This document shows positions 1,955-9,735 of a stretch of DNA of 26,427 nucleotides, piece by piece. Location of the stretch: positions 1 to 26,427 of IMG/VR virus record IMGVR_UViG_3300037440_000274; one strand, 5' to 3'. This DNA comes from a virus. Lineage: Duplodnaviria > Caudoviricetes. Both the position numbers and the translations under genes were made by a program. Each line of letters opens with the position of its first letter. The stretch's first letter is position 1. Below the pieces are notes generated by a model. That model did not search any database, was not told the DNA's origin, and saw only the letters and a program-made list of their open reading frames with translations.

Positions 1955-3643
1955 ATGCAACTGACGATCCGAAATTTCCGGGGCGTTTCCCATGCGGAAA
2001 TCACCCTGACCCCGCTCGCCCTGGTATGCGGGCCGAACGCGAGCGGCAAGTCCAGTATCGCCCAGGCGCTCGCCGCCCTGCTGTCCGGGCAGGTGTTGCC
2101 CCTGGAGGGACTGCGTAAGGCGGACGCGGCGATGCTCGTGCGCAGCGGCGGCGGCGCGTCGCAGATAGCGCTTGAGCGGAAAGACGAGCGCGGCGAGTCT
2201 CGCGCGGCCATCGCCTACCCGCAGGCCAAGCTGACCACGGAGGGCGCGGTTATCCTGTCGTCGCCCATCGCGTGCGGCCTGGAATCGTTGACGGAAATGG
2301 ACGCCAAGCAAGCGGCGTCCACCATGATCCGATACCTCAACGCGCAGCCCCGCCGCGAAGACCTGGACTCCGAGTTGACCAAGATCGGACTCAGCCCGGA
2401 GCACTGCGAAAAACTCTGGAACATGATCCAGGAGTCGGGATGGGATGGCGCGCACGCGCACGCCAAAGAGACGGGCGTAAAGTTCAAGGGCCAGTGGGAG
2501 GAGGCGACCGCGGGCGAGCGCTACGGCTCCAACAAAGCGGAGTCGTGGCTTCCCGCCGGCTGGGAAACCGACCTGACCGGCGCGTCGGAAACCAGCCTGC
2601 AAGCCGCCGTGACCCAGGCGCGCGAGTTCGCGGACGCGGCGGTGGCCACAACGGCCATCAGCGACGAGCGGCGACGCGAGTTGCAGAACGCAGCCAACCT
2701 CGTGGCCGTGCTGCGCCCCAAGCTGGCGGAGGCGCAGAAAGACGCGGACGCCGCCGCGCTGGCGCTCAAGGGTCTCGCGCAGAGCCGCGCAGAGATGCCC
2801 AAGCCCGTCGCGCAGGAACAGACCTGCCCGTGCCCCCACTGCGCAAAGCCCGTCGTGATTCGGGGCCAGGCGCTCCACGCTCCGGCAGGCGGAGACACCG
2901 AACAGGACGCCGCGCGGGCCAGGGCGTTGGCGGAGATTGACCAGCGCGTGCAAGAGTGGAACAAGGTCTATCAGCCGTTGCCGGAAGAGATTCGCCGGCT
3001 CACGGCAGACCTGGCGGTGGCGGAGCGGGCGGCCAAGGAACTGGCGGGCGCCAACGTCGGCGCCTCAGGCGGCGCAGACGCGGACGCGCTCGAACGGGCG
3101 CGGCGCGACGTGCAACGCGCGGAAGCCCGGCTATCCGCGCACAAGGCCAAGCTGCGCGCGGATACGCTGCATCGCAGCATCGCCCGCAATCAGGCCGTGG
3201 TCGCGCTGCTGGCGGCGGACGGACTGCGCCTGGGCAAGCTGCGCGGGGCGATCAAGGAGTTCAACGGCGCGCTGGCGCCGCTCTGCCAGACCGCGCAGTG
3301 GGGCGTCGTCTCTCTATCGGACGACCTGACCGCGTGGTACGATGGGCGTCCGTGGACGCTGCTTTCCGTGTCCGAGCGGATGCGCGTGCGGGTCACGCTG
3401 CAAGCGCGCATGGCCGTGATGGACGGGGCTCACGCGCTGGTGTTCGACGCCGCCGACACGCTGGATCGCGCGGGCCGCAACGGGCTGATGCGCCTGATTC
3501 GCAGCGTCGGAGTTCCCGCGCTGGTTTGCATGACCATCGTTCCCGCGCTCGGCCAACCCGACGCGCGAGCTCAAGCGCCCGTCCTCAAAGGCGAGGCGGG
3601 TCGCACGTACTGGGTCGAAGGCGGAACCGTGGAGGCGCTATGA
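1955..3643 (+). CDS. Rad50/SbcC/SMC-like ATPase with coiled coil and Zn-hook, 562 aa
   Basis: IRNFRG, Walker A GPNASGKS, coiled coils flanking CPHC, signature-like LSVSE, Walker B-like LVFDAADTLD. RBS AAGGAG. Confidence 0.85.
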   Translation: MQLTIRNFRGVSHAEITLTPLALVCGPNASGKSSIAQALAALLSGQVLPLEGLRKADAAMLVRSGGGASQIALERKDERGESRAAIAYPQAKLTTEGAVILSSPIACGLESLTEMDAKQAASTMIRYLNAQPRREDLDSELTKIGLSPEHCEKLWNMIQESGWDGAHAHAKETGVKFKGQWEEATAGERYGSNKAESWLPAGWETDLTGASETSLQAAVTQAREFADAAVATTAISDERRRELQNAANLVAVLRPKLAEAQKDADAAALALKGLAQSRAEMPKPVAQEQTCPCPHCAKPVVIRGQALHAPAGGDTEQDAARARALAEIDQRVQEWNKVYQPLPEEIRRLTADLAVAERAAKELAGANVGASGGADADALERARRDVQRAEARLSAHKAKLRADTLHRSIARNQAVVALLAADGLRLGKLRGAIKEFNGALAPLCQTAQWGVVSLSDDLTAWYDGRPWTLLSVSERMRVRVTLQARMAVMDGAHALVFDAADTLDRAGRNGLMRLIRSVGVPALVCMTIVPALGQPDARAQAPVLKGEAGRTYWVEGGTVEAL

Positions 3644-3861
3644 TCCCGGAACGGCGCAAGGGCCAGTCGAATAGTTGGCGCGTTTGTGCCGGATGCGCGC
3701 GGAGGGTGGGGCTTGCGCCTATGATGTTTCAACTTGCGCCCGGCCAAGCCGACGTTGAGCGCGGATCGGGAGGAGTCGTCCACGTGTGGAATCGCAGCGT
3801 TCCGGCCAAGGCAGGGTACTGCCTTGGCGTTTCCGACCGCCGCAAACAAAAGGAATCCTGA
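3640..3861 (+). CDS. Hypothetical protein with CxxC, 73 aa (MIPERRKG...)
   Basis: GGAGG RBS, ATGA overlap with the ATPase stop, TGATG coupling to the next gene. Confidence 0.55.
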   Translation: MIPERRKGQSNSWRVCAGCARRVGLAPMMFQLAPGQADVERGSGGVVHVWNRSVPAKAGYCLGVSDRRKQKES

Positions 3862-4031
3862 TGGACACCTTCTGGCACTGGCTTCAAATCTTCGGCGCGT
3901 TCTTCGCCGCTGGCGCGCTGGCGCTCGGCGCCCTGGCCGAGTGGGCGGCGTGGTTCAACCGGCGGCGCGCCATCCATGGCGAGCGAGCGAGAAAGCTGCG
4001 GTCCGACATCTACGCCGGGAGAAAACCATGA
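3861..4031 (+). CDS. Small single-TM membrane protein, 56 aa (MDTFWHWLQIFG...)
   Basis: AAGGA RBS, hydrophobic N-terminus followed by RRR, translationally coupled at both ends. Confidence 0.65.
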   Translation: MDTFWHWLQIFGAFFAAGALALGALAEWAAWFNRRRAIHGERARKLRSDIYAGRKP

Positions 4032-4197
4032 CACTCCGAGAACTGCTGACCGCCATCGTCGCGCACCGTCCCTCCTGCGCTCCGACCGCTGGCACGATTC
4101 GGTTTCTCTCTGCGGCGTGGATCCGGACGTGATCCGGGAAGAGCTCAAGCGCCGCTACCCATGGATGCGAGGAAAAGACGATGGAACCGATGCGTGA
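4028..4197 (+). pseudogene. Possibly frameshifted or internally deleted small gene
   Basis: The coupled start MTLRELLTAIVAH (4028) stops at 4132, while a protein-like C-terminus LLRSDRWHDSVSLCGVDPDVIREELKRRYPW lies in another frame ending at 4197. Confidence 0.35.
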
Positions 4198-4348
4198 CTC
4201 CGACTGCCCGCACCCGCAATGGCTGGTGAAGGGCCGCACGGACGATGGGCGCGTAATCAACGAGTGCATGGACTGCGGCCACGTCGAACACCTGGCGCCG
4301 GAGGATGCGGCGCTGTTTCGCAGCGAACCTGACGCCCCGGAGGGCTAG
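4181..4348 (+). CDS. Small Zn-ribbon protein, 55 aa (MEPMRDSDCPHPQW...ECMDCGH...RSEPDAPEG), not in the ORF track
   Basis: Translated by hand. GAGG RBS, CPH and CxxCGH motifs, stop immediately before ATG 4349. Confidence 0.65.
   Translation: MEPMRDSDCPHPQWLVKGRTDDGRVINECMDCGHVEHLAPEDAALFRSEPDAPEG
4319..4347 (+). repeat. 29-bp direct repeat, copy 1 (gene end plus RBS)
   Basis: CGCAGCGAACCTGACGCCCCGGAGGGCTA, 27/29 identical to 4652-4680. Confidence 0.9.
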
Positions 4349-4681
4349 ATGAATGCGACCATCCTTGTCCTGCTTATGCTTGCTGCTGGTGTCGTGCTCG
4401 TTGCAGTCGTCGCAGGCATGGCCGCCGCGCTCCGCACCTACAGCGACGATCACGGCTGGTGGTGCGGAGGGGACTGCGACTGTCGTTTGGCTATCAGCTC
4501 GGCCCAGCGCGAGCCTGAAACCTACGCTGAGCGGGTCTGTCGAGAGTACGATGAATGGAGATGGAGGGAGGAGCAATCCGCAGACACAAGGCGACTACAG
4601 TGGAACCATTTCAGTTGCAGATGGGATGAATGCCCGTTCCACAGCGGGCCGCGCAGCGAACTTGACGCCCAGGAGGGCTAA
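4349..4681 (+). CDS. N-terminal TM, Cys/Trp-rich protein with HGW-x5-CDC motif, 110 aa
   Basis: GGAGG 5 nt upstream, 25-aa hydrophobic stretch, ends RSELDAQEG within repeat copy 2. Confidence 0.55.
   Translation: MNATILVLLMLAAGVVLVAVVAGMAAALRTYSDDHGWWCGGDCDCRLAISSAQREPETYAERVCREYDEWRWREEQSADTRRLQWNHFSCRWDECPFHSGPRSELDAQEG
4652..4680 (+). repeat. 29-bp direct repeat, copy 2
   Basis: CGCAGCGAACTTGACGCCCAGGAGGGCTA. Confidence 0.9.
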
Positions 4682-4682
4682 C

Positions 4683-4877
4683 ATGGATGCGCCATCTATT
4701 GCCGCTATTGTTAGTGTCTGCGTTATCATCCTCGTCGCCGCCGCCATCTGCATTGTTATCTACTTCGGCGACCTTCTTCGATTCGAGTCCAGAAGTCACG
4801 GCTGGCTCTTCGCCCACAGTTGCGACTGCCAGAGTGACGCTCCGCACGACGCTCCGCACGACGCTCCGCGCGATTGA
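4683..4877 (+). CDS. Small TM protein, 64 aa, paralog of 4349-4681 (HGW-x5-CDC), overlapping the transglycosylase ORF
   Basis: GGAGG 6 nt upstream. MDAPSIAAIVSVCVIILVAAAICIVIYF TM segment, and HGWLFAHSCDC matches HGWWCGGDCDC. Confidence 0.45.
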   Translation: MDAPSIAAIVSVCVIILVAAAICIVIYFGDLLRFESRSHGWLFAHSCDCQSDAPHDAPHDAPRD

Positions 4878-5334
4878 AGCCGAGCACGGCCTGCCGGTGG
4901 GTATGCTCCGCGCCGTGTGGTCGCGCGAGTGCTCAATGCAGGACCCGTGTCCAGACGGCGATGCGGGCGAGCGCGGTCCGATGCAGGTCATGCCCAGGAC
5001 GGCGGGAGATATAAGCTGCGCCGATGGATGGGAGTCCGGGGCCGAGAATTTCCGGTGCGCGGCGATCTATCTGCGCAGCAGGGTCGAACGATGCGGCCCG
5101 CGCATGGAGGCGCTAGGAGCGTACAACGCTGGCAATCGGTGCCCACGATCTAGCTACGCTCAGGACGTGTACGGGCGGATGTTTTCATGGAGCCCAAAAT
5201 ACTCTGACGCCCTCCTTGGTCGGGTAGTGGTTACGGGTCAGCCCAGCAGCTTCATTCCTGCAAAAGTTCCACCTGGCCCAACTTCGCGTCCGTCGGACGC
5301 GCCGTTGGTTTGCGAGACGAGAAGCTCAAAATAA
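4687..5334 (+). CDS. Lytic transglycosylase (SLT family), probably exported
   Basis: HGLPVGMLRAVWSREC (catalytic Glu position), GPMQVMP and ALGAYNAG motifs. Signal-peptide-like MRHLLPLLLVSA and an S/T/P linker. Alternative in-frame GTG at 4834. Confidence 0.85.
   Translation: MRHLLPLLLVSALSSSSPPPSALLSTSATFFDSSPEVTAGSSPTVATARVTLRTTLRTTLRAIEAEHGLPVGMLRAVWSRECSMQDPCPDGDAGERGPMQVMPRTAGDISCADGWESGAENFRCAAIYLRSRVERCGPRMEALGAYNAGNRCPRSSYAQDVYGRMFSWSPKYSDALLGRVVVTGQPSSFIPAKVPPGPTSRPSDAPLVCETRSSK
4836..4871 (+). repeat. 3 x 12-bp tandem repeat GACGCTCCGCAC
   Basis: Read directly. Encodes TLRT repeats in the SLT frame and DAPH repeats in the overlapping frame. Confidence 0.9.
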
Positions 5335-6056
5335 TCCCCCGGTGTGACGACCAGCATTGGTGTAGCCAACACGGCGCTGGGGCGGATGTTGAGTGATGTG
5401 GATGGCCGCGCTTCAAAGTATGGAGCGCCATTGAAGTCTGCTCCATTTTTGGTCAGCCTCGCCCCATACGGGTTGTAGTCGCTGTTGATTTCAAATCGAA
5501 AGCCCGCTTGTAACTGGACGCGCGTTATTCCCGCCGGAACGGTCAGCCGGGTGGGGTTACCGCCCCCGATCTGAAGAATGTTGTCGGTGTCGTAAGTCGC
5601 CACCGTCCAGATGATCGCTGTTTCGACGCCGCTGCTTATATCTTGCCCGACGCTGAGGGTGGCGAGCGCGCCGCCCGTTTGCAGCGTGGCCACGTCCGCT
5701 TGCAGCGTGGCCACGTCCGCTTGCAGCGTGGCCACGTCCGCTTGCAGCGTGGCCACGTCCGTTTGCAGCGTGGCCACGTCCATTTGCGACACGACTTCAA
5801 CGTCGCGCCACGTCACGGTGTCTAGCCCCACCGTCGCGTCAATGCGGTAGCGGTCCACCGCCATGTAGGCGCGGAACGATCCGTCCGCGTTGCCCGTGAA
5901 GGGATTGGAAATCCCAACCGTCAGCGCGTAGTCGGAAAACAGCGATGCGTCGCCGCCGTCGGACTCGCGCCGGATGCGCACCGACGGCGAGGCGAGCACG
6001 CGAATGTCGCCGTCAACCTCAAGCGCGGCGAGCCCGTTGAAAACTCCGGCGGTCAT
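5238..6056 (-). CDS. Putative trimeric fibre/receptor-binding protein (virion-attachment N-domain, heptad stalk, beta-sandwich head), 272 aa
   Basis: N-terminal LFSD...SNPFTGNADGSF motif as seen in tailspike attachment domains, (DVATLQA/T)x5 coiled coil, and a C1q-like C-terminus (RLTVPAG...TPGDYFELLV). Confidence 0.7.
   Translation of the reverse strand: MTAGVFNGLAALEVDGDIRVLASPSVRIRRESDGGDASLFSDYALTVGISNPFTGNADGSFRAYMAVDRYRIDATVGLDTVTWRDVEVVSQMDVATLQTDVATLQADVATLQADVATLQADVATLQTGGALATLSVGQDISSGVETAIIWTVATYDTDNILQIGGGNPTRLTVPAGITRVQLQAGFRFEINSDYNPYGARLTKNGADFNGAPYFEARPSTSLNIRPSAVLATPMLVVTPGDYFELLVSQTNGASDGREVGPGGTFAGMKLLG
5677..5781 (-). repeat. 5 x 21-bp tandem repeat encoding coiled-coil heptads
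   Basis: G(C/T)TTGCAGCGTGGCCACGTCC x5 on the + strand. Confidence 0.95.
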
Positions 6057-6487
6057 TGTGCGGGCTCCGAAACGTCGCAGCCGACAGTGGCGAGTAGGTC
6101 GCGGCGGCGCTGGTACTCTGCCGCGCCGGTGTGCTGGATTGCGGCCTCCAGCGTCAGCCGATCATTGACCAGTTGCGCAATCGCCTCCGCCGCTTGGCGC
6201 GGAACGCCCGCACATTGCAGAGCGATTTGCGCGCGCGTGAACGCCTCCGCCGCTGCCGCTCCGATCAGCGCGTCAACCGCCGCCTCCATCGCCTCGCACT
6301 CGCGCACGTCGAAGGCCGCGCGCCCACCGTCGGACGAGCCTGCCGGCTCCGCGAACTCCGGCGCGGAACTGACGTTCCAGGGCCAGGATTGGCCCGAGCA
6401 CGAGGCAAGCGAAAAAAGCAGGGCGAGCACGGCAAGCTGCCAGCGGACAGCGCGGGCGAAGCCGCGCGTGAACAGTGGACGGATCAT
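6053..6487 (-). CDS. Lipoprotein, 144 aa (spanin-like position in the lysis cassette)
   Basis: GAGG RBS, MIRPLFTR...LAVLALLFSLAS-C lipobox, three further Cys, ATGA overlap with the next gene. Confidence 0.65.
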   Translation of the reverse strand: MIRPLFTRGFARAVRWQLAVLALLFSLASCSGQSWPWNVSSAPEFAEPAGSSDGGRAAFDVRECEAMEAAVDALIGAAAAEAFTRAQIALQCAGVPRQAAEAIAQLVNDRLTLEAAIQHTGAAEYQRRRDLLATVGCDVSEPAQ

Positions 6488-6501
6488 GGCGGACCTCGCT
6501 G

Positions 6502-6792
6502 TCAGTCGTTGTGCGGATCGTCCATCGCTGGTTGTGGCGGCGTGTCGTCTCCGCCGGGGAGCGGGCCGGTCGTGACCGCGCGCAGCGCGAGGTTCACCCC
6601 GACCAGGAGCATCGCCACCACGGCGTCCACGACCTCGCCGGGCACGTCCAGTCCCATGCGCGCGACGCCCCATGCGACGATCACGGTGAGGTTGGTTGTC
6701 ACCGTTTTGGTTCCGGGCGGCGGCGCATGACCCGTCGCCATCGCCTTGTATCCCTGGTACGCGGCCAGGGCGAGTTGCAGGACAGCGTTCAT
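6502..6792 (-). CDS. Putative holin, 96 aa
   Basis: GAGGGAG RBS, two hydrophobic segments ending NLALRAVTTGP, located downstream of the amidase. Confidence 0.6.
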   Translation of the reverse strand: MNAVLQLALAAYQGYKAMATGHAPPPGTKTVTTNLTVIVAWGVARMGLDVPGEVVDAVVAMLLVGVNLALRAVTTGPLPGGDDTPPQPAMDDPHND

Positions 6793-6794
6793 GC

Positions 6795-7052
6795 TCAACT
6801 CCCTCGAATGAAAGTCCACAACGCGACACCCGCGCCGGCCAGCATGGCCCAGCCGGTGACGAGTCCGTAGCGCCAGAACTCCAACGCGCGCAGCCGGCCC
6901 GAGTGATTGTTCAGCCGCTCCACAACATCCTCGCGGAGGCGGGACTGCTCCTGCTGGACGCCGCGCATCGCTTCTTCCAGGCGCGCGAGCGTTTGCCCTT
7001 GCTTTACCTGTTCGGCGCGCAGCTCGCGAACGTCCTGAAGCGTCGGCTCCAT
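6795..7052 (-). CDS. XhlA-like coiled-coil protein with C-terminal TM, 85 aa
   Basis: TGATG coupling to the amidase. Heptad pattern ending RLRALE, then one TM helix. Confidence 0.65.
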   Translation of the reverse strand: MEPTLQDVRELRAEQVKQGQTLARLEEAMRGVQQEQSRLREDVVERLNNHSGRLRALEFWRYGLVTGWAMLAGAGVALWTFIRGS

Positions 7053-7471
7053 CAGGCGCCACCCGCGCCCGCCCACCACGACCGCACGTCGAAGCCTGGG
7101 CATTCGGTTGCCGCCAAGTCGCGGTGCCCCATCACGGCGGCGCACGGCAGGGCGTAGAGCCCGCACAACCAGCGCAGCGTCACGGTCAAGGCGGAGATTT
7201 GCGCGGGCGTGAACAGGCCGCCCTCGCCCACCATGCAGATACCGAGCGTGTCATGGTTGTGGTCCTTGGCGTGCGCGCCTTGTTCCTCGTGCGGACGGCC
7301 GGCCTTGACCTCGCCGCTGCGCTCGATCACGTAATGGTAGCCCACGTCGCGCCAGCCGTTGCGTTCGACGTGGAACCGCTTGATCGCCTCCATACTGTCC
7401 AGCGGGCCGAAGTCCGGCACGGCCCCGAGCGCGGAGTGGTGGACGATGATGCGGTTGATCTTGCGGGTCAT
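7052..7471 (-). CDS. Endolysin: N-acetylmuramoyl-L-alanine amidase (Amidase_2, T7 lysozyme-like), 139 aa
   Basis: IIVHHS, GWRDVGYHY, GAHA, LGIC and GHRD...ECPG Zn-amidase motifs. AGGAG RBS. Confidence 0.93.
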   Translation of the reverse strand: MTRKINRIIVHHSALGAVPDFGPLDSMEAIKRFHVERNGWRDVGYHYVIERSGEVKAGRPHEEQGAHAKDHNHDTLGICMVGEGGLFTPAQISALTVTLRWLCGLYALPCAAVMGHRDLAATECPGFDVRSWWAGAGGA

Positions 7472-7506: not shown

Positions 7507-9735
7507 TTAGCGATGGTCAATCGCCTCGTACTCATACACGCCATCGCCGTTTTCCGTGACCTCGATCACCTGCAAGTCCTGCGCGGACTGCCCGCCCGTG
7601 TCGTCCTGAAGCCGATGGTGCGACAGCGTGAACACGTCCCCGGTGCGCAGCGCCTCGTCTTTAGCCCCGAGAGAGAAGCGGATGCGCCGCGTCACGGGCG
7701 CGCGGCGGTTGAGCAGCGCCTGCGCGCGGGCCACGGCTTTGGCCGTTTCCGCCGCGCCGATCCAGCGCGAGAAGACTTGCAACACGCGCGTGTCGCCGAA
7801 TCCATCGGCGGACTCGGCTTCCGCATCAATCTCTATGTGGACGGCGGAGAAGTTGATCTTGTCGTTCAGCGCGCCCGCCGGATTGATGATCCCGAAGTAG
7901 AACTCCACACGGCTGATGCGGCGTTGCGTCCAGTCCTCGCCGTTGTAGGTATCGGCCAGCACGTGCTCCGCATCGGTGAGCGCCGCCACGGGCGCGCGTC
8001 CCGCGTCCAGGATGCGCAGCTTGATTTCCTGGTCAATGTCGTCCCACCACAGATACATTTGCGTCTGCTGGACGATCTCATTGATTAACGTGCGCGCGCC
8101 GGTCGGAAAGGCAATGACCGCAGCGAGCGTGAATCCGGGCAGGAACGACGCGCCTTCGGATTGCCAATCCGTGTACGGGATGAATGCCGGATTGACGTTC
8201 GACACGTCTTGCAGCAAGTCGCGTATGATCTCCCACGGCGGGCCGGATAGTTCTTCTGCGTTCTGAAAGATTTCGCCTTCGGGATGCGGGTCCGCATTCG
8301 TGTTGTGCTGGGCGCGGGTCAGGCGGAAGGCGGGGACTTCGGTGTCGAGGATTTCGCAGATAGCGCTTGTATTAGATGATATAAAACGGCTATTGCCGAC
8401 AAGCTCCCATGTAGAGCCGTTCCAATGATAGCGTTGGAGTAGTTCATTTGTGCTTGCAATGAAAGCAACGTCTGTGTCTGAAAGGCGGGCGAGGGCGACG
8501 GAGCCTCCAAGGAATGCCACCGTCAGTCCGCTGCCGACAAGCTCCCATGTAGAGCCGTTCCAATGATAGCGCCGGAGGGAGTCGTTACCAGTATCAATGA
8601 AAGCAACGTCTGTGTCTGAAAGGCGGGCGAGGGCCGCGGGAAGCCCGACGCCGCTAATATTGAGTCCGCTGCCGACAAGCTCCCATGTAGAGCCGTTCCA
8701 ATGATAGCGCCGGAGGGAGTCGTTGATCCCATCAATGAATGCTATGTCTGTGTCTGAAAGGCGGGCGAGGGCTGGGATTCCCCCGGCTGCGTCAATCACA
8801 AAATCCGCGTTGATTTGAAACCAATCTATTCCGTTAAAATGATAGGTCCTAAGAGTTTTGCTATTTGTCTCAATGAAAACAACCCCATTAAACATCGTCG
8901 CATCAAACCCGACAACCTCCTGACCCACCGATGCAATCCCGCTTGCCGGATACTCCGCCGCCACCGCGCCCGGAGGCTCGATAGATACGACGGTCTGCCG
9001 ATCGTCAATCGCAAAACCCAGCCGCCCCGTGGTGCGCACCGGGAACGTCGCGCGGTCGTCGTCCGCCAGCTTGAGAATGTCCTTGCCGACGATCTTGACG
9101 CGCCCTTGCCCATCCGGCCCCTCCCATCCATCAATGATATAGGTGCGGCGGCGTAGGTTCGCCAGTACCTCCGCTTCCGTCCATGCGGGCTGACCCTCCG
9201 GCCCCACGGCGGGCTCCCAGGGCAGGTACCCGGTGTAGACGTGCATCAGGCGTCCGTTGTAGTGCGGGTTGCGCGCGCGCAGCTTGCCGAACAGGGTGCC
9301 GCGCTCGTACGGGTCGTACCCGTCTTCATCGGTTTGCGCGGCACCGGTAAGCCGCTCCGCCACGTACTTGTCCGCGCCGCGGTCATGGTGCGGCGCGTCG
9401 CGCATCGCCACACTGCACGTCGCGCGCTTGCCCAGGCTCTCGCCTGGATCAATCAGCGTCGGGTTCAGGTCCACGTCCACCAGCAGCGGATACGCATCTA
9501 TCGAGCGCGGCCATCCGTCAACTGGCTCGATGAAGCGGTAGACCTTGGCCTCCGGCGTGTAGTTGGCCGTGTCCTGGCAGGTGCCGAACGTGTTGTAGCA
9601 TTTGCGCACGCCCGTCCCGCCCAGCACGGCGGCGCACGGCGCGACGCTGTACGTCAACGCGCAGAAGTCAAGCTCCAGCTCAACCATGCGCACGAGACGG
9701 CGCCCGGAGCGGAGCTTTGCGGTATCGAAGGTCAC
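7507..9735 (-). CDS. Tail tip/hub protein with an internal repeat insert, 742 aa
   Basis: Second gene after the tape measure. N-terminal Cys cluster (FCAL...PCAA...KCYNTFGTC), ESLGKRA, ARNPHY and LWWDD motifs typical of siphovirus tail-tip proteins. Confidence 0.75.
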   Translation of the reverse strand: MTFDTAKLRSGRRLVRMVELELDFCALTYSVAPCAAVLGGTGVRKCYNTFGTCQDTANYTPEAKVYRFIEPVDGWPRSIDAYPLLVDVDLNPTLIDPGESLGKRATCSVAMRDAPHHDRGADKYVAERLTGAAQTDEDGYDPYERGTLFGKLRARNPHYNGRLMHVYTGYLPWEPAVGPEGQPAWTEAEVLANLRRRTYIIDGWEGPDGQGRVKIVGKDILKLADDDRATFPVRTTGRLGFAIDDRQTVVSIEPPGAVAAEYPASGIASVGQEVVGFDATMFNGVVFIETNSKTLRTYHFNGIDWFQINADFVIDAAGGIPALARLSDTDIAFIDGINDSLRRYHWNGSTWELVGSGLNISGVGLPAALARLSDTDVAFIDTGNDSLRRYHWNGSTWELVGSGLTVAFLGGSVALARLSDTDVAFIASTNELLQRYHWNGSTWELVGNSRFISSNTSAICEILDTEVPAFRLTRAQHNTNADPHPEGEIFQNAEELSGPPWEIIRDLLQDVSNVNPAFIPYTDWQSEGASFLPGFTLAAVIAFPTGARTLINEIVQQTQMYLWWDDIDQEIKLRILDAGRAPVAALTDAEHVLADTYNGEDWTQRRISRVEFYFGIINPAGALNDKINFSAVHIEIDAEAESADGFGDTRVLQVFSRWIGAAETAKAVARAQALLNRRAPVTRRIRFSLGAKDEALRTGDVFTLSHHRLQDDTGGQSAQDLQVIEVTENGDGVYEYEAIDHR
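8395..8772 (-). repeat. Approximately 3 near-identical 138-bp (46-aa) repeats, plus a diverged fourth extending to about 8905
   Basis: TCTGTGTCTGAAAGGCGGGCGAGGGC at 8471, 8609 and 8747 (period 138). Protein unit ALARLSDTD.AFI...RYHWNGSTWELVG. Confidence 0.95.

Follow-up and report, generated by a model that had tools for sequence, protein, structure and literature searches.

A duplicated two-start cassette in the early arm of a tailed phage, in which small membrane proteins and the predicted export signal of a transglycosylase may share overlapping frames

The DNA analysed here (26,427 nt; hereafter the window) is the entire virus record IMGVR_UViG_3300037440_000274, from a tailed phage whose terminase finds its best match at 51% identity. 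The + strand up to 5334 carries recombination genes, ATPase genes and small ORFs, and the - strand carries the terminase-to-tail genes together with an amidase lysis cassette. The dual-frame locus forms the terminal part of the + strand arm, and this gene order supports its placement in the early arm, apart from the lysis genes. An assembly artefact was rejected on the basis of a Logan contig, possibly from the source sample, that is identical to window 3500-5708 with 0 differences. Between 3500 and 6100 we found no sigma-70-like promoter, and terminator-like sites were no commoner than in shuffled sequence. The last late gene (5238..6056, -; tail-fibre-like) converges on the locus, its 3' end overlapping the end of the transglycosylase gene by 97 nt (5238-5334), and the phage's own lysis cassette (6053..7471, -) comprises an amidase, two holin-like ORFs and a lipobox-bearing ORF. 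The latter (6053-6487, -) contains LAS-C, lies directly after the two holin-like genes and the amidase and has no Pfam or PHROG match; an inner-membrane spanin partner for it is not obvious. A 21-nt tandem repeat (5651-5808) encodes heptads in the tail-fibre-like gene, and three 138-nt repeats (8387-8772) lie in the long tail gene, within a stretch of lower G+C; an inverted 26-29 nt copy related to them sits in the amidase gene at about 7217-7245. A beta-helix protein (PF13229; 17500-18330, -) directly follows the major capsid gene, and the early cluster also contains a small ORF (3861-4031, +) with one hydrophobic segment, a basic tail and no family match.

The locus consists of two units 334 nt apart. 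Each is preceded by a copy of a 29-nt boundary repeat (4319-4347 and 4652-4680, both +; 93% alike), made up of the preceding ORF's 3' end and a ribosome-binding site, with the Shine-Dalgarno sequence GGAGG at 4339-4343 and 4672-4676. Two start codons 4 nt apart follow: ATG-A-ATG at 4349/4353 in unit 1, with GGAGG 5 and 9 bases upstream of the two starts, and ATG-G-ATG at 4683/4687 in unit 2, where the distances are 6 and 10 bases. The ORF upstream of unit 1 (4181..4348, +; 55 aa) has two Cys-rich motifs, a codon score of +0.48 bits per codon and a weak, below-cut-off match to DUF2387 (E 0.0072). Its last codons and stop form repeat copy 1, and the stop abuts ATG 4349. Because the repeat joins a gene 3' end to GGAGG, the protein that runs into its second copy ends with the same C-terminal peptide as ORF 4181-4348.

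The first frames of the two units encode single-pass membrane proteins, TM1 (4349..4681, +; 110 aa, helix about 5-25) and TM2 (4683..4877, +; 64 aa, helix about 6-26), each with one hydrophobic segment and an HGW-x5-CDC motif that follows it in TM1. The +1 frame of unit 2 (4687..5334, +) encodes a 215-aa protein with an SLT domain (PF01464), predicted to be an exported lytic transglycosylase. That of unit 1 (4353..4877, +) is open for 174 aa and comprises a signal-like N-terminus, the lipobox-like LVS-C, a middle section free of relatives and then TM2 in frame. Owing to the 334-nt spacing, the +1 frame of unit 1 coincides with that of TM2 and not with that of the SLT domain; the 174-aa ORF thus shares its frame and its end with the 64-aa TM2, a feature absent from an earlier note on this DNA. 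That note had described the paired starts behind one ribosome-binding site, the boundary repeats, the two membrane ORFs and the open +1 frames, and we confirmed the coordinates of each. The sequence features of the duplicated two-start cassette are real, although ATG-N-ATG on its own is not rare, being found at 7 of the 410 distinct Shine-Dalgarno-preceded starts in the window and the fetched loci, both units included. At 4838-4873, the junction between linker and SLT domain, a 12-nt unit occurs three times and is read in both frames; at the matching place a relative has a 9-nt repeat, as deduced from its protein P0004.

The 215-aa ORF is an SLT lytic transglycosylase by its Pfam match (31.3 bits against a cut-off of 21.3, residues 64-154), its catalytic Glu81 and its modelled fold, and its muralytic activity is predicted on these grounds. 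It has a hydrophobic N-terminus, a Ser/Pro linker, a domain at about 51-170 with Glu81 and six cysteines, and a 43-residue tail. Glu81 is invariant in 75/75 aligned rows and ends a predicted helix (73-82). In the structural model residues 51-170 form a block with pLDDT 84-98, compared with 50-66 outside it, and the best match among solved structures is Pseudomonas aeruginosa Slt (PDB 6fbt, E 5.5e-4). An exhaustive homologue search returned 657 proteins at E 0.001, and the closest relatives among the best 150 of these are small, Cys-rich SLTs; Cys111 and Cys124 are invariant in 21/21 rows. The three closest relatives among those 150 stop just after WSPK and lack the last 43 residues. This tail (window 5200-5334) shares part of its sequence with the converging tail-fibre-like gene, is poorly modelled and probably occurs in the window genome only.

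Export of the enzyme would depend on the +1 frame from ATG 4687. Among the 24 closest subfamily proteins, hand-picked by catalytic motif and including those of the window and P0157, 22 have a hydrophobic N-terminus, defined as a 10-residue stretch of mean hydropathy at least 2 within the first 60 residues. The core in the window SLT averages 2.64 over 10 residues and would be a short signal. The in-frame GTG at 4834..4836 (+) is a candidate alternative start, but no Shine-Dalgarno-like bases occur in the 18 nt before it. On these sequence criteria, and in agreement with the earlier note, the SLT is likely exported from ATG 4687 and not made without a signal from GTG 4834. A lipobox was present in only 2 of the 10 proteins checked, being confined to the unit-1 type and absent from unit 2, and so is not a conserved feature. 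Four distant SLT-like ORFs (L009, L023, L031 and L046) have a start codon just some 15 residues ahead of the catalytic Glu, lack the first helices and have no clear signal. Searches of viral contigs by peptide patterns found no SLT relatives, annotated phages gave two weak SLT matches only, and the subfamily was found in 2/88 genomes of the phylum of G001 and, in a second search that scored 9 candidates per genome, in 0/401 genomes of the phylum of G089. Scans with DNA patterns yielded mostly chance matches (one gave 0 matches, one gave 7 true SLT ORFs among 53, and in one all 8 of 8 were chance).

The membrane peptides are less well connected than the enzyme. The first 48 residues of TM1 match P0004, and the last 62 are free of relatives and end in repeat copy 2. 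The TM2 stop codon falls within the sequence for the first SLT-domain helix, a position matched in the relative that encodes P0004. Homology between TM1 and TM2 is weak by profile (E 0.0095). HGW-x5-CDC does not hold as a family motif: it is confined to TM1, TM2 and P0004, the related peptide P0159 has RGW and one Cys, and the peptide of the prophage locus L055 lacks the motif altogether. Its reading as an invariant metal site was rejected. All five peptides (5/5) lack Lys or Arg before the helix, and their tails are short or rich in Cys, His and Arg. By the charge rule alone, a C-in topology is likely for the TM2, P0159 and L055 peptides, and TM1 is ambiguous. Given this likely topology, it is improbable that the peptide's tail contacts and inhibits the enzyme across the membrane, and any contact between peptide and SLT would lie within the membrane. 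Searches of Pfam, PHROG and PADLOC assigned the peptides to no family with a useful score, and Atlas matches for TM1 and TM2 reached 0.82 or lower. No relatives of either were found in viral contigs by peptide patterns or in metagenome contigs, a search that did not return P0004's own contig, and neither TM1, the 174-aa ORF nor the locus DNA had matches among annotated phages. Beyond unit 1, our searches found no free-standing copy of the membrane ORF without an SLT.

Three other phage sequences show the same layout or allow it to be deduced. In P0157 (182 aa), the N-terminus encoded by unit 1's +1 frame is fused to an SLT whose core is identical to that of the window at 103/112 positions. P0004 (73 aa) represents the membrane frame, with a TM1-like start and the same last two residues as TM2. 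One DNA could encode both proteins in two frames along the full 73 codons, leaving 4 positions ambiguous when the stop is counted. P0004 and a C-terminal fragment, P0007, each come from a JGI contig of 3,166 nt and P0157 from a Logan contig, so that gene callers picked different frames. We infer that a close relative has a single unit, with P0004 and P0157 as its two frames. A second case is P0159, which shares 26 of its first 30 residues with TM2 (profile-search E 5.6). In a best-case back-translation, its +1 frame can spell 28/29 residues of the window SLT's N-terminus and also both SLT catalytic motifs at the correct spacing. The score of this frame was 44.2, compared with 21.1 +/- 5.6 for shuffles, none of which scored as high (0/150), and 62.9 for a positive control. 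The SLT encoded there would belong with the ordinary SLTs and not with the Cys-rich ones.

L055, a Mu-like prophage locus of which L056 is the same record, was found through SLT homology alone. Here one GGAGG is followed by overlapping GTG starts 2 nt apart, which open a 178-aa SLT and, in its -1 frame, a 70-aa membrane ORF that ends where the SLT domain begins. An in-frame ATG lies just before that domain. The module sits between gam and gemA, and a peptidase-like gene (below the Pfam cut-off) and a holin with three transmembrane segments lie elsewhere. The L055 peptide has no detectable homology to TM2 (E 0.052). The prophage also encodes, between a late activator-like ORF and the lysis genes, a membrane protein of 330 aa with several helices and a Pro-rich stretch that is repeated (L077 15396-16385, -). 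The overlap is thus visible in DNA at two loci, the window and L055, and the other two cases are a protein pair and a best-case back-translation. Among 21 distinct SLT-like ORFs with DNA, a -1 membrane ORF is present in 2 (the window and L055) and absent in 19. The closest subfamily members with DNA, L006 and L037, carry the SLT without a membrane partner, so the peptide is not required for the enzyme. Five more subfamily proteins, scattered over a tree of 27 rows from which P0024, P0028 and P0047 were left out for lack of the anchor motif, have N-termini resembling helix shadows. A score for a hidden -1 helix, calculated from protein sequence only, placed L055, P0008, P0083, P0157, P0019 and P0013 at the top of 52 proteins. 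P0012, whose DNA has no overlap, outscores the window's own SLT, and we treat this score as a lead only.

Unit 1 differs from these cases. The N-terminus of its 174-aa +1 ORF is the one fused to the SLT in P0157, but relatives are limited to its first 43 residues. The middle of about 65 residues has none in viral contigs searched by peptide patterns, in annotated phages or in protein families, would be open by chance with P 0.59-0.94 and has a codon score of -0.18 per codon. The 174-aa ORF is therefore likely a by-product in the window genome. The earlier proposal of a compact module using both frames holds at the SLT-bearing unit, but not for four functional products: as the +1 ORF of unit 1 contains no SLT and is no longer than chance would allow, three products (TM1, TM2 and the SLT) are likely. 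The window genome is likely a mosaic, in which a 334-nt insertion would have cut unit 1, with the relative's 5' end, from its SLT and brought in a second, P0159-like 5' end, giving TM1, TM2 and the SLT as they now stand.

We assessed constraint on the two frames by resampling synonymous codons over 20,000 rounds with the protein of one frame held fixed, under phage or uniform usage. With the membrane protein fixed, hydrophobic cores as strong as those of the +1 frames of units 1 and 2 were reached with P 0.0001 and 0.0002 under phage usage and 0.002 and 0.007 under uniform usage; with the +1 protein fixed, the membrane helix was reached with P at most 0.0004. Because the window units were chosen for these very traits, their P values are inflated, and more weight falls on L055 and the controls. 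In L055 the +1 core alone was not significant (P 0.09-0.15), and the joint P was 0.006-0.027. All of the unrelated membrane ORFs used as controls (10/10) had a +1 stop within 45 codons and P 0.13 or more. Of 13 Shine-Dalgarno-preceded membrane ORFs in 509,223 nt, the three linked to an SLT rank first; in this control ranking the scoring of unit 1 as closed arises solely from the stop codon that precedes ATG 4353. A T at the third position of a membrane-frame codon is a T at the second position of the +1 frame. Across codons 4-14, third positions hold T in 6/11 and 7/11 cases, compared with 0-3/11 in 22/22 control genes, and across codons 15-45 in 3/31 and 5/31, so that the enrichment falls exactly where the signal core sits.

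Other measures bear on the relative age of the frames. Codon scores are +0.16 and +0.19 for the membrane frame and -0.29 and -0.43 for the +1 frame, compared with +0.16 for the SLT core and an average of -0.64 for a pure -1 shadow; these values favour the membrane frame as the older. Differences between unit 1 and unit 2 are spread evenly over codon positions (8, 9 and 9 of 18). After the helix, the membrane frame keeps 9/18 residues between the units, 4 of them via different codons, and the +1 frame keeps 5/17. Relative to the single-unit relative, 3 of the 4 differences in codons 1-44 change a residue in each frame, with no purifying signal in either, and in codons 45-48, a boundary set post hoc, all 5 base changes are silent in the membrane frame.

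With moderate confidence, we interpret these observations as a dual-coded 5' module, in which one Shine-Dalgarno sequence would serve a membrane protein in the first frame and, in the +1 frame, the export signal and linker of an early-exported, non-lytic SLT. Other readings must be weighed against this. Only the SLT frame may now be selected, the enzyme having captured the +1 frame as its signal and left the membrane ORF as a relic that the Leu/Ser/Pro-rich signal and linker keep open. Such capture of N-terminal parts out of frame is known for E. coli genes (PMC8788219), subfamily SLTs exist without the peptide, the His and first Cys are lost in P0159, and when TM2 is compared with P0159 the +1 frame can be better conserved than the membrane frame (28/29 against 26/30). 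We nonetheless consider this explanation unlikely, as the membrane frame retains its own better-spaced start in the window and in L055, P0004 and P0159 begin with Met, and both the residues kept between the units and the membrane-silent changes near codon 45, post hoc as their boundary is, point to a frame that still matters. The converse, that the upstream starts serve the membrane genes only, would make the +1 signal a shadow of the helix and start a signal-less SLT from a downstream codon, such as GTG 4834 in the window or the internal ATG in L055. The genetic code itself makes hydrophobic codons yield much Ser, Cys, Leu and Pro when read in the +1 frame, the +1 codon scores are negative, and some distant relatives (L009, L031 and L046) have short N-termini. 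That reading is quite improbable when set against the lack of Shine-Dalgarno-like bases before 4834, the two diverged 5' ends, each of which is open and leads in frame into a near-identical SLT core, a hydrophobic core above the shadow null and all 10 control genes, and the hydrophobic N-termini of the hand-picked close relatives (22/24).

Two further readings concern function more than coding. A membrane protein and a muralytic enzyme are the usual lysis pairing, and endolysins with signal peptides or SAR anchors are described (PMC6116005); the module could then be a second lysis pair, a single-helix holin-like peptide with an exported endolysin that stays inactive until the membrane depolarises. 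We judge this very improbable, for the window already has an amidase and holin-like genes in its late arm, and the L055 prophage has its peptidase-like gene and holin away from the gam/gemA module. Least probable of all, and in our view hardly credible, is that all four products act, with the 174-aa ORF as a lipoprotein tethered by its C-terminal helix in the manner of a unimolecular spanin: this layout was found only in the window genome, the locus is in the early arm, and the middle of the ORF has the chance-level openness, negative codon score and absence of relatives described above.

Well-studied same-strand overlaps in tailed phages are mostly spanins. The resemblance of the dual-coded module to Rz/Rz1, suggested in the earlier note along with a different geometry and an early position, extends to the +1 overlap, but the module is not a spanin. 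In the two-component spanins of lambda (Rz/Rz1) and P2 (PMC6139136), as here, a membrane protein in the first frame overlaps an exported protein in the +1 frame of the same strand, and gene callers miss such pairs, as they did here by choosing different frames. Unlike in those spanins, a single ribosome-binding site here precedes both starts, which are 2-4 nt apart, and the second product is enzymatic, a lipobox being found in just one of the 5' types. The inner spanin subunit is N-in (PMC6139136), whereas the membrane protein here has neither a positive N-terminus nor a long helical periplasmic domain, and the module is outside the lysis cassette. A two-component spanin was rejected on the SLT domain, the lipobox count of 2/10, the absence of a basic N-terminus and helical periplasmic domain, and the distance from the lysis genes. 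The lambda S105/S107 holin and antiholin also arise as two products from neighbouring start codons, but those starts are in frame and the products near-identical (PMC6116005), whereas the starts in the window are out of frame and the products unrelated; a dual-start holin/antiholin was rejected on this point. A SAR or signal-peptide endolysin would be a late gene beside a holin, whereas this SLT lies in the early arm with a separate amidase cassette.

The enzyme shares with P. aeruginosa Slt (PF01464; PDB 6fbt) a Pfam match above cut-off, the invariant Glu81 and the fold, but it belongs to a small, Cys-rich phage subfamily of about 140-210 aa found among early genes, some members of which have a dual-coded N-terminus. 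ALT-ORF remodelled genes (PMC8788219) likewise take an N-terminal part, predicted to be disordered, from another ORF's alternative frame and join it to a normal domain. In the present case the donor ORF is intact at the same locus and the captured part is a putative export signal; the main text of that article uses neither 'signal peptide' nor 'transmembrane'. T4 Imm and Spackle (PMC7677548) are also early phage envelope products, one of them periplasmic, but Spackle inhibits lysozyme, whereas here the exported protein is itself the predicted muralytic enzyme. GndA, encoded within gnd, is likewise a same-strand, frameshifted and membrane-associated small protein, yet it lies inside a bacterial metabolic gene (PMC11230408), whereas the overlap here is a shared start region in a phage. 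Same-strand overlapping phage envelope genes are a kind already known; the architecture is unusual and recurring, and a search of titles and abstracts, with subscription papers mostly outside it, returned no description of this arrangement.

We are able to propose how the dual-coded module might work. One ribosome-binding site would serve two out-of-frame starts; of the ribosomes that finish the upstream gene, or that bind GGAGG, most would use the first ATG and fewer the second. The first start, with its 5-6 nt spacing and adjoining upstream stop, may outcompete the second (9-10 nt) and so keep the enzyme scarce. Initiation at the first would give a small single-pass inner-membrane peptide, and at the second a precursor for Sec export, which would fold as its six cysteines form disulfides after export and would then nick peptidoglycan. 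The membrane gene was presumably the older frame, and the SLT would have taken its signal from the +1 frame of that gene. As the SLT occurs without the peptide, the overlap may mainly serve to gain an export signal. The purpose of the module, for which the earlier note had suggested superinfection exclusion, wall remodelling or enzyme-inhibitor pairing, is the least supported step. The SLT genes of the window, L055, L006 and L037 are placed with early genes, and this, together with separate lysis genes, argues for a non-lytic role, in which the exported SLT would nick the host wall early in infection without lysis and so bring about an envelope change in the infected cell or lysogen. By analogy with T4 Imm, Spackle and similar early envelope proteins, superinfection exclusion is our first guess for this role, though a rather unlikely one.

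More generally, it is conceivable, if somewhat doubtful, that phages repeatedly build the export signals of early wall-cutting enzymes from the +1 frame of a small membrane gene, in up to eight subfamily members and in P0159, where the SLT would be of another type. Both proteins and one ribosome-binding site would be kept, the ratio of membrane regulator to periplasmic transglycosylase would be fixed, and the cassette would be swapped between SLT cores. If the dual-coded reading is true, two genes would overlap from their first codons onward, the choice of frame falling to a single ribosome-binding site, and an enzyme would have a concrete way to acquire an export signal from the shadow frame of a neighbour. 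Phage annotation should then contain a class of small membrane proteins that have been overlooked, as well as SLT calls that are too short. The locus also draws attention to early, exported, Cys-rich transglycosylases of phages as a group that has yet to be studied.
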